From Eledone cirrhosa (lineage: Eukaryota): a stretch of 64,000 nucleotides of DNA. Positions within the stretch are counted from its first letter, which is position 1, and every line of letters begins with the position of its first letter. Below, piece after piece: positions 8,448-46,918 of the stretch. The stretch spans positions 344,720,001-344,784,000 of the forward strand of contig OZ024743.1 of NCBI GenBank assembly GCA_964016885.1, written 5' to 3'. The translations under genes were made by a program, and so were the position numbers. The notes beneath the pieces are model-generated. The model saw only the letters and a list, made by a program, of their open reading frames with translations. It was not told the origin of the DNA and made no database searches.

Positions 8448-8484
8448 ATGAAGAGTACTATATGTTTATGTCTTCTCATTTTAG
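8448..8484 (+). CDS. Host gene exon 1: signal peptide MKSTICLCLLIL(G)
   Basis: ATG at 8448, 12 codons plus 1 nt, consensus donor G|gtaagt. Phase 1 joins exon 2 to give MKSTICLCLLILGVALS, a typical signal peptide. Confidence 0.85.
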
Positions 8485-8819
8485 GTAAGTAGATAATATT
8501 CCCATTGCAGAAGTATTATTTTTGATTCAATCTACACTTTTTCTCATCATTGCATTTCAGCATTTATCTATCTATCTATTTATATATAACTCTAAATTTA
8601 TCCCCTCAGCGCTTCGTAAAAATCTGAGAGATCGAATATGTATACCCGATATTTGCTTAAAGCCTATGATTCAGTTACTTAATTTAAGGTGGCAAGAGTT
8701 GTCATAGTCCATTGGTTTAATGGGTCAAGACGCCTAGCCGGTATCTGGCAGACAGAAGTTTCGATTCCTCGTAGCTGCCATTGACAACTTCTTTTTCTCC
8801 GTCTTTGGGGGTCTTCACT

Positions 8820-8925
8820 CATGGTTTAGTAGTTAGAGGTTGTTATTTCGATTCTCAGATCAGGTGATGCGTTATGTCCTTGAGCAAGACACTTTATTTC
8901 ACGTTGCTCCAGTTCACTCAGATGT
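8820..8925 (+). mobile_element. tRNA/CORE-like SINE fragment
   Basis: tggtttagtagttag...ttcgattc...gtccttgagcaagacactttatttc; same family at 44673-44790 (+) and 56630-56900 (-). Confidence 0.6.
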
Positions 8926-9144
8926 TGAAAAGAGTTGCGGCATTATTGGTGCCAAGCTGTATTGGGCATTGCTTTTCTCTTGGATAGCATCGGTGGCGTG
9001 TGGAGATGAGACTGGTATGCATGAGCAACTGCTGGTCTTCCACAAGCAAATCTTGCCCATGATAGTTCCCCGGAGGAAAACTTTCTAGATGCAAAACCAT
9101 GGTCATTAGTAACCGATCCGATGGGGGTCCTTTAAATAAATAAA

Positions 9145-10729
9145 TCACCAAAAACCTGCCTAAATGCAAAAACAGAAATGTTTACCAGTTGCCCACACAT
9201 GAAATCACACTTGCTTTCCAGCTCATATAAACTTAACTCACTTTCAGATACTTATCCTCCATAAACTCTTGTTCTTCACTTTCCTTAATTTATCCTCTTT
9301 ACAGACTTCTCTTTCTGATTTACTTTTATTTTTAACTTTATATTTATTTTTATTTTTACTTCACATCCACCAGTGACCCCCCCCCCTATTTTTGATTCAC
9401 TTACCTAATATCTTCACAATTCCACATCTTACTTCCCCATTTTCTTTCACTACCTGATATCACTTGTCACTTGCGCTTTCAACTCCAGATATATTCTGTT
9501 GTTTCGCAGCCGCTTTTATATTTGTACTCATTTATTCATACAGCTGGTTTATAATTTGTATCTATGCGTGTGAGTGTGCATATTTGTGTATGCGTTCTGT
9601 ATATGTATACGAACGCCTCCGTATGTGTACGTGTGTGTGTATATATATGTGTGCGTATGTGTGTTTTTATATCTATGTTTTTTTACATACTTATATATAC
9701 GTGTGTGTGTGTGTGTATGGGTGAATGTATGTCTATATGTATGTATGTATGTATATATATATATATATATATGTATGTGTATGTATGTGTGTATATGTAT
9801 ATATATATATATATAGTCGCGTACGTACGTGTGATTAGATATACATGTGCCGATATATATATATATGTGCCTCGTGTGTAGGTATGCGCGCCTCTGTATG
9901 TATGTACGCATGTATGTGCTTTTGTCTACGTATTTATATATATATATATATATTTATATATATATGTGTGTACAAACCTATGTTTGTTTTCTTTTTTTCT
10001 AGTGTTAATTTATAATTGATAACCCCTCCATCTTACTTTCTCTTTGATTAAAAAAAATGTTTCATTCTCATATATTGTTTCATTTTTATACATGTATCGA
10101 GCCCCAGACTGACACTCCTTTGACTAATACACTCCCTTCCCTGTATATCATTCGCATATATGTGATCGCGCGTGTGTGTGTGTTTATACGCGTGCTTTCA
10201 TACTTGTATATGTATATATTTAATACCTGAATCTGGATGTGTGTTAACTATATTATCTTACAATTTCTTTTTCAACTTATATTATATACGTATTTGTGGT
10301 CACACATACACTGATATGCTTGCCCTCATATATGTACTTACGCACACATTTTCACTATACACATGCATTTGTACATACACACATATGTACATTTGTGAGT
10401 GAATATACACACATTTATACACATACCCTAACTATATTTCCTTATTTTTTTTTATATATCTCTTGCATTACTTTTATTTATATATTTTTATTGCCCGTTA
10501 AACATTTGCCTTTCTTGAGGAGATTTTTCAAATATTTCACCATGTTTTAAATTGCCTTGTCCGATGAACGAATGAGGACGTTTTTAGTATTCGTCTTATT
10601 CGGGATACCTGTGGTAATGAGGTAATTATATTGTATTGTATATTATACATTAAATTTAGCTCTGGTACTTACATAGAGCACTCTTCACTCCTATGACTTT
10701 TTCAATTTTCAACGGAAACTTCAATACTT
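9145..10729 (+). mobile_element. 5'-truncated Naiad-type Penelope-like element (ORF end, microsatellite-rich pLTR, degenerate HHR, tail)
   Basis: From 9151 reads KTCLNAKTEMFTSCPHMKSHLL, matching TCLNSKTEIFRCCPHLKSHLI of the element at 18720-18971. Ends in (TA)n. Confidence 0.7.
10552..10625 (+). ncRNA. Degenerate type I hammerhead ribozyme
   Basis: Stem I TTGCCTTGT/ATGAGGTAA, core CCGATGA...GATAC (two core mutations), long stem II, GTA cleavage triplet. Confidence 0.6.
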
Positions 10730-10745
10730 ATATATATATATATAT

Positions 10746-43527: not shown

Positions 43528-44541
43528 CTAGGAAATATTTCCTTTCTTGAATTCTTTCACCAATTTGAATGGCACCCAAGTGTTTTTGTTGGAAATTTTA
43601 TACTGAATGTCTGTACATTGTTTGGTTTGCTTCTTTCAATTCCCTTTAAATTTTGTTTTAATATTAAACTTCCTCTCTTCGTTAATCCCTTTGTTGAGTT
43701 CTTAATTTCTTTATTTAATCTCACATATACAGAATCCTGTTTCTGATCCATGGTTTTAATTTATCTTTTTTTACAAAGCTTCTCTTGCTGAGTCTGTTAT
43801 CATTGAATAATAGTAGTACAAATGCCATATCAAGTTTGTCTGAAATATGCCATATCAAGTTTGTCTGAAATATTGAAAGCGCGGGCTGAGATTTCACCTT
43901 CTAAAATTTAAAAACCATGTTACTTTACAAATACTTCAGACAAACGTGACCTGACATTTGCATCTCTACCATCCAAGTAGCATGATTTTTAAATTCTCGA
44001 ATATGAAATCTCTGCTCGTGGTATAGTGTCCTTAACAGTATAGCAGGTAGTTTTCAGGAGAGTTCATTCTGGGTCTAAAAATATTGGTTGCCAGGAGATA
44101 AAGGGAGCTCACCCACATATAGAAGGGTATCACTTAACTTTTATAATGAATAACATTTTCAAAAAATACATATGTGAAAACAAAACAGTGCAATCAATTA
44201 TTTGCAGGAAAAAATGTGTATTTTAAAAACTAATTATAGTGTGTATATATTACTGGCAGTATAATGTAATACTAAATGTTAATACAAAATGTAATAATTG
44301 AAGTTTTGAATAATTGTGAATGTACAGTATACTGCAATTTAGAGTAGAATATGCAAGCGACCGTTCTTACCTTCTCCAAGAAAAAATATAAAGTACCTTG
44401 CGAAATATACACATCCAGGGACGTTCAATAATGACTTTTGGTCTTTCACATTCACTAAAAAAAAAAATAAAAAAAAATAAAATTATATATATATATATAT
44501 ATATATAAATATATATAAATATATATATATATAAATATATA

Positions 44542-44626
44542 TTGTTATACTTGGGGAGGGTCATATTTGTGTAATATTGCCAGAATTAATAACAGAATAC
44601 ACTCACTGTTTGGTTGGTTTTCGCTT
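44542..44626 (-). mobile_element. 85-bp solo terminal fragment of the PLE3 family
   Basis: Nearly identical to 28039-28125, flanked by (TA)n. Confidence 0.85.
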
Positions 44627-46480
44627 TTATAAATATATATATATATATATACATATTATATATATATATAAGTGAAGGCGTGTGGCTGGTTGGTTAGATA
44701 ACTGGATTCGCAATCCTGAGGTTGTCAGTTCGATTCCTGGACCAGGCGATGTGTTATGTCCTTGAGCAAGACACTTTATTTCATGCTGCTCCTTCTACCT
44801 GGAGTTGCGACCGCTAGATAGTATTAGCAATTGGAAAGACCAACGGAAACATTGTTTCCTCGGTCCGATTTGACGAAAGTTGATCGACAAAAGAATATAT
44901 ATATATATATAAGAAAAAGAAACAGGGGCTGTGTAGTTGCTGGATAAGGTGTACTTATATATAAGTTGTCATCAGTTGTCTGCTGGGGTTCATGGATATT
45001 TCTACGCATTAAAGACAAGATATCTATCCCCAGTGCGTCAATAACTACAGGAAGTTTTTGGGGAAAAAAAGGAAGAGAGAGAAAAAAATATATAACAAGG
45101 GAAAGGGGAAGAAAAAGGAAAAAGACAGCAATAAAAAGGAAATATATATATATATATATATGCGTGTGTGTGTGTCCATGTATGTATGCATGCTTGAATG
45201 AATACAGTGCGTTAGACAACCAGTGATTCTAATTGTTAGCACTATCCTATATTTTTGTTCCTTTTAATTTCCTAGCGAATTGTTTGAACAAATGCATTCC
45301 ATATTTGATAATTTATTTTTTAAAAACCTTCATTCTTTCTCTTAGAGATATTTTTAAAGATATTTTATGAAAGCAAAGCATTGGCCCCCTAAAATACTAT
45401 AGTGGGCTCCTGCAGCTAACGTGAGCCTCTGGGGCCCACTTTCCATTGGGCAGCTTGGCAGCCTGGCCAGTCCACCACTGCCTACATCTGCATGCAGAAC
45501 CGCGAACGTTCTGGTAATGTTATATATTGGTCCATACCAGGATGTGTTGTACTTATCACGTATTTGTACCTGGTAATTTCCATTAGATACCATCCTATTT
45601 CATTTGTGTATGAGTGAGAGAGTCATCTCGTGTTACACTATCCACCTTGAATTTCATGTCACACTGTAATATATATTCTTATTGCCTTTCTTCTCAGACA
45701 TGTCTTGAATAGCTGTATTTTTTCATCGCCATAATCTGTTATTTGCCGTGTAGATTTGTGCTCCGTTGATGTTACAGGACTTTGATTGAAGGAGGATTAT
45801 TCTGAGCCTACGTGATTCTAGTTGGAATCCAAGTTTGGTGTTCTTAATAGTTGAATTGCAGAGCCCTAGAATGTGCTTGAGTTGTTTCAGTATTCCAGTT
45901 TGGATAAGTGTTTTAATATTTAGAATGTGTTCTCTAGTAAACTATTTCATGTCAATTCACTAGTAGCCGATATATTCCATTCACCCTGATGACAGAGGGT
46001 TGGCGTGGTCATTGTTAACCAAGGCTGCAGCTGTATGGTATAGCGATATTTCTTCCCGCTACAACATCATACTTCGTATTATTGGCAGCTAAACTGGACT
46101 GAACCCATCTCTTTCCAGGCCAATTTAGACTTAATTACTTCCAGCTAGGTTGCTTGTTTTGGTTGTAAACAGGAATTCGTTGCATCCCGGAAATGTTTCT
46201 GCTTTGGTCAGTTTTGCCCAGTGTTGCCGAGTCAATATCAGACCCCTCATTTTGTTCAATCTGATAGTTGTGCTTTACCTGGGCCTGGTCCTTAGAACCC
46301 CTAAATAAGAAATTTGGAAATAGTTGACGACTAGAGATACACGCCCACACATTCAATTAAATATGGACCATTACATTTAGGGAATAAATATTTAAATACA
46401 CTATGGAACTTAGACTACATGGCTAGCGGTTTTTAGCTATTCCTCTTTACGATATGTTATTTTTGTGACTTTATTATTAA

Positions 46481-46663
46481 GATTGGCAGTATCGGTAGAG
46501 GGTCGGACGCCATGCTTTGTAGCATAGAGTTACGGCCCTTTATGATCTGAGTTCAAATCCCGCCGAGGTTAACTTTGCCTTTCATCCTTACGGGGTCGAT
46601 AAAATAAAGTACCAGTAATACACTGGGGTAATTGCTGGCCTTGTGCCAAAAGTAGAACAATTA
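46481..46663 (+). mobile_element. MetaSINE-like copy
   Basis: A-box, B-box, central domain and attatt tail. Confidence 0.85.
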
Positions 46664-46838
46664 TTTTCTGAGGTCAAAGGTTGAACTTGGTGGGACACAA
46701 ACTGAGAAGAGGAAAATTACCTGGTACATTCCACAGTATTTACTTGTATTTTTAGCTGATTCCAGATAGTTAGATACAATAAATTTGTAATATATCTATC
46801 TGAATTTATTTAAACACCATCCCTTATATATATTCCAG

Positions 46839-46918
46839 CTCCGAAAAGGAACAAGGGCGAGGTTTTAACGTGCAATATGATATTACAAATTATATTACTG
46901 GTTCTGATATACCTGTAG
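46839..46918 (+). CDS. Host gene exon 6: GPI-anchor-like C-terminus (TPKRNKGEVLTCNMILQIILLVLIYL*)
   Basis: Acceptor tattccag|, phase 1 compatible with exon 5. N-K-G small-residue site, short spacer, 13-residue hydrophobic tail, TAG at 46916-46918. Confidence 0.8.

Follow-up and report, generated by a model that had tools for sequence, protein, structure and literature searches.

Six short exons, scattered among transposons in the 64,000 nucleotides of Eledone cirrhosa contig OZ024743.1 analysed here (the window), are likely parts of a single gene, which encodes a small exported protein containing two six-cysteine modules. By its sequence, this protein is a member of an unnamed octopod module family that includes the Octopus bimaculoides genes LOC128248155 and LOC128248050. 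Our preferred reading, to which we give a probability of roughly 0.55, is that of a fast-evolving, GPI-anchored binding or recognition protein made of two disulfide-tied helical modules.

As read from the window, all exons lie on the + strand with AG/GT ends and add up to 504 nt (37+100+95+100+92+80). The introns are GT-AG in 5/5 cases, their phases (1, 2, 1, 2, 1) match, and the predicted spliced product has 167 aa and a single stop; recomputation thus reproduced the six-exon model of the initial annotation. The features are as follows:

8448..8484, + strand: exon 1, with a GTAAGT donor in phase 1; carries the start codon and the larger part of the predicted signal peptide
12181..12280, + strand: exon 2, an A-type exon entered in phase 1 and left in phase 2; completes the predicted signal peptide and carries Cys1-Cys3 of module 1
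12820..12914, + strand: exon 3, a B-type exon entered in phase 2 and left in phase 1; carries Cys4-Cys6 of module 1
12915..38662, + strand: intron 3, 25,748 nt, with microsatellites and retroelement remnants
38663..38762, + strand: exon 4, again A-type; carries Cys1-Cys3 of module 2
40268..40359, + strand: exon 5, again B-type, with a GTAAGT donor; carries Cys4-Cys6 of module 2
46839..46918, + strand: exon 6, the least secure of the six; encodes a basic linker, a candidate omega site and a hydrophobic C-terminal tail, and contains the stop
46919..47180, + strand: putative 3' UTR, in which 47049, 47080 and 47175 mark candidate poly(A) signals

The three sequencing runs that we consulted cover the introns and hence represent DNA, from one sample; none of them is RNA. 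Contigs assembled from these runs over exons 1, 2, 3, 5 and 6 show 0 differences at background depth, and the bin holding exon 4 is likewise of background depth. The putative 3' UTR falls within such a contig (46638-47491), and its poly(A) signals are weak indicators, AATAAA being common in the AT-rich DNA of this region.

Exons 1-5 are independently supported, because the first 140 residues of the product, from Met1 on, can be aligned with LOC128248155 and because the isoforms of that gene point to the same two intron positions. In BLASTP, 44/140 residues of this alignment are identical (31%; E 2e-23), and it passes the exon 3/4 junction with a single gap. Exon 1 is collinear with the N-terminus of LOC128248155, residue 20 being the first module cysteine in both proteins. 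The isoforms X1 and X2 diverge through a frame shift over 29 residues (shuffles reach at most 3 in 300), which implies that one Octopus intron lies two bases past the Cys3 codon and that the other follows Cys6 by one codon and one base. These positions, inferred for one module, are those seen directly at exons 4/5 here; a phase-2 intron after Cys3 and a phase-1 intron after Cys6 would therefore be common to the window gene and the Octopus module.

It is highly improbable that the exons are relics, that they belong to two genes (exons 1-3 and exons 4-6), or that they are the decaying remnant of a longer multi-module gene. Such readings can draw on the 25.7 kb spanned by intron 3, on the long branch of module 1 (3.04; 16-26% identity to other modules), and on the many more modules of the relatives. 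Against them, 12/12 module cysteines, every splice site and the reading frame are intact, and the Octopus alignment crosses the junction between exons 3 and 4. The + strand of intron 3 contains neither an extra module exon nor a candidate first or last exon of the kind that two tandem genes would require, and stray module exons were absent from 664 kb.

Both modules follow the pattern C-x7-C-x16-C-x8-C-x8-C-x11-C. They share 14/56 residues, with an alignment score of 73 that was equalled by 0/500 shuffles with fixed cysteines, so that the identical spacing and the repeat proposed earlier are borne out. The module was further evaluated with an HMM built solely from 19 O. bimaculoides modules and tested on 6,891 open segments, among which exons 5, 4 and 3 rank first, second and third (E 2e-8, 1e-6 and 3e-4). 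On half-module HMMs from Octopus, exons 3, 4 and 5 score 16.3, 30.0 and 37.3 bits, each matched by 0/500 shuffles. Exon 2 alone is weak on both models (E 8.4; 2.1 bits, with 35/500 shuffles as high), and its assignment is supported by cysteine spacing and collinear alignment. In the alignment of 21 modules, the six cysteines and an Arg two residues after Cys3 are present in 21/21, followed by Phe after Cys5 (19/21), the Pro of a YP motif and an Asp (18/21 each), Leu (17/21) and Tyr (16/21). Identity between modules is otherwise low (16-41%), and the module tree lacks resolution, with 2/18 branches starred. Relaxed constraint could explain this low identity as well as selection for new partners. 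Exon 3 also encodes one N-glycosylation sequon, at residue 58. Since the exon pair encoding one module has phase 1 at both ends, it can be copied in frame.

A profile of exons 3+5 yielded a single match among 1.84 billion proteins, namely LOC128248155 (XP_052824892.1, XP_052824891.1), whose product of 540 aa contains 8 full modules and a half module; its paralogue LOC128248050 has 11 modules. The relatives resemble the window protein in their signal peptide, six-cysteine module and inferred intron positions, but differ from its 2 modules in number. Their cysteine gaps range over 6-7, 12-18, 8, 6-8 and 11, and the commonest combination (7, 16, 8, 8, 11; 10/19 modules) is the one found in both window modules. 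The literature search returned 0 papers for the two gene identifiers and the two XP accessions, and RefSeq names the proteins uncharacterized. The papers searched yielded no description of the module either. The initial annotation had not recognised the family and had considered it possibly lineage-specific. The gene is not an orphan, since two RefSeq proteins of Octopus, both uncharacterised, carry the module.

Searches for additional members were negative within their scope. In the genome, exons 2-5 each match only their own site, apart from one chance match in a tandem repeat, and exon 4 is the sole site matched, weakly, by 3/4 Octopus queries; these counts are lower bounds. Four other weak genome matches were evaluated as module exons and failed to score as such. 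Word-based protein searches at E up to 10 provided no member from exon 3 (31 candidates) or exons 2+4 (3 candidates). In the ESM Atlas, exon 3 retrieved one bacterial row at 0.76 and the Octopus protein P0001 no usable match; PDB sequence searches with queries A1, A2 and A4 gave 0 matches, and Pfam assigned nothing over cut-off to the five exons and three Octopus proteins.

What deserves closer consideration is the relationship to the RGM N-domain and to neuritin, which the initial annotation had seen in the cysteine core. RGMs are GPI-anchored, and RGM_N (PF06535; PDB 4UHY) resembles the module, as predicted here, in being an extracellular six-cysteine helical bundle with a Cys-x5-Tyr-x2-Cys helix. 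One could suppose that the module is a remote descendant of the three-disulfide helical bundles of the RGM_N/neuritin kind, working in an RGM-like manner as a GPI-anchored BMP-type co-receptor or neural receptor. The six cysteines and a central gap of 8 are common to both, human RGMA likewise has an aromatic residue ahead of Cys3, a Leu in position +3 and a Tyr in position +6, and P0001 obtains RGM_N as its single Pfam row (E 0.83, in 4 stretches). Both are also small helical bundles, by prediction for the module and, for RGMA, by the description as a compact alpha-helical bundle in an excerpt of PMC13234300. However, the P0001 row reaches 10.4 bits against a cut-off of 24.2, the window exons as well as the Octopus proteins P0002 and P0003 lack an RGM_N row, and the rows obtained for P0002 and P0003 belong to unrelated families at similar E. 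Against the module HMM, the genome's own RGM_N reaches 4.2 bits, a value equalled by 83/500 shuffles with fixed cysteines; its pairwise alignment with the module lies below the shuffle mean, and hhalign against query A5 gives a probability of 0.2% with shallow profiles. Its cysteine gaps are 4, 21, 8, 7 and 21 versus 7, 16, 8, 8 and 11, and it occupies one open frame as a single copy followed by the C-terminal domain, whereas the module has an intron after Cys3. The true RGM orthologue of this genome lies elsewhere, with the C-terminal part in the same frame as RGM_N, and no such C-terminal domain was detected in the 167-aa product or its relatives. With a sub-threshold Pfam score, a shuffle-level HMM score and another intron layout, the proposed likeness reduces to a short motif resemblance, and RGM or neuritin descent appears quite improbable.

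Neuritin (NRN1; PF15056) and DUF19 (PF01579) proteins are small, extracellular and cysteine-rich like the module, and neuritin is in addition GPI-anchored and helical. Neither Pfam family matched the five exons or three Octopus proteins at E up to 10, and no NRN1 match was found in the genome. Aplysia attractin, of which an excerpt of PMC3484142 reports 58 residues, three disulfides and one N-glycan, is close to one module in size, but soluble and single-copy. Those SP-alpha peptides of Sepia that a published table lists have cysteine patterns different from that of the module.

The helical disulfide bundle foreseen in the initial annotation agrees with an AlphaFold2 model of two Octopus modules, which predicts a three-helix bundle plus a short helix per module at a mean pLDDT of 77; the model represents the homologue rather than the window protein and is based on a 6-row alignment (pTM 0.52). 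The full-length model is poor (pLDDT 54). Foldseek at E 0.001 returned 0 matches for both models in the PDB and 0 for the two-module model in BFVD. The VIA fold search placed 18/48,161 chains at Z 5 or more and 0 at Z 8; its best 50 rows show generic similarity (top row Z 6.4, rmsd 3.0, 53 aligned), with RGM, neuritin and attractin absent among them, and a further fold comparison reached Z 4.4 at best.

Export and anchoring were judged from hydropathy and spacing. The N-terminus has a basic n-region and a hydropathy peak of 3.2 over residues 5-15, and within 2 x 664 kb exon 1 is the most hydrophobic of the 10 first exons of signal type. Together with the collinear Octopus N-terminus, this argues for the signal peptide, which is predicted by rule. 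At the other end, Asn147 is a candidate omega residue, 20 residues from the C-terminus, in a pattern that requires splicing to exon 6 and is absent from the relatives. The GPI tail proposed earlier is plausible, but exon 6 is the sole part of the gene that lacks homologous support. It is the second most hydrophobic among 13 GPI-tail-type exons in 2 x 664 kb, and a GPI-like last exon would arise by chance with P of about 0.09 within 10 kb and about 0.21 within 26 kb, as estimated with filters written after the answer was seen. Exon 6 obtained no score when evaluated as a decayed A-type exon.

The gene might instead stop at exon 5 by read-through, or at another short exon, and produce a soluble two-module protein, with exon 6 a chance occurrence or a minor isoform. 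Read-through of the exon 5 donor meets a stop two codons on and gives a tail-less protein ending three residues past the last cysteine, with an AATAAA at 40830; the three RefSeq sequences of the relatives similarly lack a hydrophobic tail and end two residues past theirs, and the chance value of about 0.09 points in the same direction. We nevertheless regard this reading as rather unlikely, given that exon 5 keeps a consensus GTAAGT donor and that exon 6 is in the right phase behind a pyrimidine-rich acceptor. Exon 6 also lies in background-depth DNA flanked by high-copy repeats, and is the only such + strand candidate from exon 5 to about 98 kb downstream. A predicted GPI anchor probably tethers the product to the outer cell membrane.

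As a tethered two-module protein, the product would leave the cell, fold into two three-helix modules tied by disulfides and stay attached outside by the anchor, where it could act as a fast-evolving binder. The six cysteines, the Arg, the near-invariant Leu, Tyr and Phe and the YP..PD loop would probably hold the fold, and variable helix faces would touch the partner. A recognition role is suggested by the predicted extracellular location, the lack of a Pfam match over cut-off and the 16-41% identity between modules. In-frame copying of the exon pair probably gave rise to the 8- and 11-module soluble relatives, which may be multivalent versions of the same kind of binder. As an unlikely extension, one exon-pair cassette, encoding a new three-helix disulfide module, may serve an octopod-specific recognition system with a two-module tethered receptor and soluble multivalent binders of 8 to 11 modules, diverging fast between species in the manner of gamete-, self- or neuron-recognition proteins.

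The family is new, yet the protein remains of an ordinary kind. The analysis delineates an unnamed extracellular module, seen here in octopods only, and connects two anonymous RefSeq proteins of Octopus with a gene of a second genome. Changes in module number would come about through exon-pair copying, and anchoring may differ among members. Cephalopod-restricted surface or secreted proteins are candidates for roles in cell-type identity and recognition; an excerpt of 10.1101/2022.06.11.495763 reports other uncharacterised cephalopod-restricted genes as cell-type markers. The identifiers LOC128248155 and LOC128248050 permit an immediate look-up of expression in Octopus atlases.

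The gene in the window is real and belongs to a module family without a name, which has so far been met only in octopods. Its six exons, proposed in the initial annotation with GT-AG ends and compatible phases, are confirmed on the DNA:

8448-8484, + strand, exon 1
12181-12280, + strand, exon 2
12820-12914, + strand, exon 3
38663-38762, + strand, exon 4
40268-40359, + strand, exon 5
46839-46918, + strand, exon 6

All five introns (3,696, 539, 25,748, 1,505 and 6,479 nt; phases 1,2,1,2,1) are GT-AG, and the joined frame of 504 nt gives 167 aa with a single stop; we infer that the exons are spliced. 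The identical cysteine spacing of the two modules likewise holds (gaps 7,16,8,8,11 in each); they share 14 of 56 residues, and their alignment score of 73 was matched by none of 500 Cys-fixed shuffles. The four module exons are the sole result of a pattern scan of the window's + strand (7 rows including alternative ends). With a looser pattern, both strands of a 264 kb stretch yielded 20 rows, of which 7 are window module exons and most others come from microsatellite DNA. Exons 1, 2, 3, 5 and 6 are covered at background depth, with zero differences, by DNA contigs from three runs of one sample, possibly the same source as the assembly; their flanks are repeats of very high depth.

Searched singly, none of five window exons matched a Pfam family, and word-based protein searches with window exons found no relatives. 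A profile built from two rows, exon 3 and exon 5, had one match among 1,835,955,588 representatives (E 6e-5, 8 stretches): P0001, the protein of Octopus bimaculoides LOC128248155, annotated as uncharacterized. With this protein as query, one paralogue was found among proteins of 297-945 aa, LOC128248050 (P0003; 704 aa, 52% identical). The family, unrecognised in the initial annotation, carries no name, but its module occurs in two uncharacterised O. bimaculoides genes. After the signal peptide these contain 8 and 11 full modules, respectively, and both proteins terminate two residues past the last Cys, without a hydrophobic tail. Between its initiator Met and residue 140 the spliced product of the window can be aligned with P0001 (44/140 identical, E 2e-23), spanning four junctions. 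When 6,891 segments are scored with an HMM trained on nothing but the 19 Octopus modules, exon 5 comes first, exon 4 second and exon 3 third; exon 2 scores weakly. The RefSeq isoforms of LOC128248155 (P0001 and P0002) differ in a 29-residue run, where identical DNA is read in different frames (shuffles: at most 3 in 300). This shift places one intron two bases past the codon for Cys3 and another a codon and a base past Cys6, matching window exons 4/5. Because of the collinear alignment, the HMM ranking and the intron positions shared with LOC128248155, exons 1-5 are, at the sequence level, independently supported by the Octopus relatives. In isoform X1 one Cys4-Cys6 exon is read in the shifted frame, likely because a donor and an acceptor lying 4 nt and 22 nt upstream, respectively, are used; both isoforms also have one half-present module (about residues 330-355), as if such an exon were lost or skipped.

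Each module is one exon pair running from phase 1 to phase 1, and module number varies between genes (2, 8.5, 11); in-frame copying of the pair would therefore have produced the differing numbers. The module tree leaves the window gene as either an orthologue or a paralogue of the Octopus genes. Within the 3.0 Gb genome exons 2-5 each match only themselves, bar one repeat-derived chance match, and three of four Octopus queries matched exon 4 weakly (E 1.6-3.1) and one nothing, such counts of module exons being lower bounds. The Octopus queries also gave five other weak places, four of which were checked with module HMMs and none scored as a module exon; the gene's surroundings, covered as 18,272 segments over 664 kb, contained no further module exons.

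Of 139 long open frames near the gene, 27 were scanned; 11 match transposon domains and 16 have no match. The remnants in intron 3 are putatively Penelope-like:

16996-17823, - strand, intron 3, retroelement remnant, reverse-transcriptase-like by eye, no Pfam row at E 1e-4
23354-26098, + strand, intron 3, retroelement remnant, reverse-transcriptase-like by eye, no Pfam row at E 1e-4
30275-32392, + strand, intron 3, retroelement remnant, reverse-transcriptase-like by eye, no Pfam row at E 1e-4
33988-34920, + strand, intron 3, retroelement remnant, GIY-YIG match
41955-42485, + strand, intron 5, Helitron_like_N fragment
59017-59550, + strand, downstream of the gene, RVT_1 fragment

One Cys-rich element end has two copies that face opposite ways and lie about 3 kb from each other (28538-29239, -; 31028-32392, +). 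One series of short tandem repeats also occurs twice, about 4.7 kb apart (22432-22932 and 27125-27613), which suggests a local duplication within intron 3. About 22-40 kb beyond the window end (L018-L019) a LINE-type element with two ORFs is repeated head to tail in three near-identical copies, of which one has an open frame of 1,153 aa. At 137-569, 1.8 copies of a 235-nt unit presumably resemble an octopus SINE.

Exon 6 encodes a basic linker, then Asn147 as the candidate omega site, and hydrophobic residues up to the stop, in keeping with the GPI anchoring claimed initially, but it has no counterpart in the Octopus relatives. By a filter written post hoc, after exon 6 was known, 2 x 664 kb contain 13 exon-6-like exons; only one of them is more hydrophobic than exon 6, and on the + strand none lies closer past exon 5. 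The chance of such an exon within 10 kb is 0.086. The same approach places exon 1 top among 10 candidates, and it has homologous support. On the + strand of intron 3 neither filter yields a candidate first or last exon, a result that speaks against two tandem genes. The single gene initially described is likely, and a relic or split gene is very improbable. A soluble two-module protein appears rather doubtful: read-through of exon 5 would stop three residues past Cys6, much like the Octopus protein ends, and the chance figure and lack of homologues of exon 6 point the same way, but the exon 5 donor is a consensus GTAAGT, which argues for splicing. We regard an anchored form as quite probable, and the family is likely GPI-anchored in E. 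cirrhosa and soluble in O. bimaculoides.

All 21 modules of the two species have the six Cys and an Arg two after Cys3; near-invariant are Phe after Cys5 (19), the Pro of YP (18), Asp (18), Leu (17) and Tyr (16). Because of the even Cys count and export, each module presumably forms three disulfides. The full-length P0001 model is poor (pLDDT 54), yet one helical pattern recurs in every module. Its last two modules, modelled in an alignment with P0003 and four window exons, reached pLDDT 77 and pTM 0.52, with predicted helices Cys1-Cys2, Cys3-Cys4 and Cys5-Cys6, and a short helix and loop after the first. The Foldseek comparison proposed earlier gave no match at E 0.001. VIA-align against 48,161 chains (best Z 6.4, rmsd 3.0, 53 aligned) matched generic helical repeats and bundles, at scores under the background that the tool gives for helical models. 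The fold searches do not assign the module to a known fold, nor do they establish a new one.

The initial annotation had likened the core to the RGM N-domain and neuritin, and had named DUF19 as a further target for a structure search; membership in all three is rejected by profile, with no Pfam row for neuritin or DUF19. A remote RGM-like co-receptor is suggested by the sole Pfam row of P0001, RGM_N (E 0.83), and by an aromatic-Cys-x2-Leu-x2-Tyr-x2-Cys helix common to human RGMA and the module. However, the row has 10.4 bits against a cut-off of 24.2 and is absent for P0002 and P0003, and the genome carries an RGM gene of its own, which passes the Pfam cut-off and matches human RGMA/RGMB chains:

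L026:1495-1713, - strand, E. cirrhosa RGM gene outside the window

Its RGM_N has Cys gaps 4,21,8,7,21 in one open frame, unlike the two-exon module, aligns to either window module with less than the average score of shuffles, and is equalled on the module HMM by 83 of 500 Cys-fixed shuffles. Such a co-receptor is hence unlikely. Deep fold homology to RGM-type bundles may nevertheless exist, and by analogy the module protein could work like GPI-anchored RGM/neuritin binders. The genome has 13 TGF-beta family matches and none to NRN1.

We favour, at a probability of roughly 0.55, an exported, GPI-anchored binding or recognition protein of two bundles. The product would enter the secretory path, lose its signal peptide near residue 17, form two disulfide-tied bundles (about 15.7 kDa, pI 8.8, module 2 basic) and receive one N-glycan and a GPI anchor; its variable helix faces would bind a partner outside the cell, and the relatives in Octopus would represent multivalent versions in soluble form. 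Of the lineage-specific recognition protein first envisaged, the octopod restriction has held so far; the binding role is conjectural. Full-text searches of the literature (main texts, few subscription journals) found neither a description of the module nor the identifiers LOC128248155 and LOC128248050. Passages of PMC10138644, PMC13234300 and PMC3484142 do not describe it, and those from 10.1101/2022.06.11.495763 concern other uncharacterised Octopus genes and do not mention cysteine. Should this prove to be a recognition system that evolves fast and comes in both tethered and soluble versions, the module family would gain weight.
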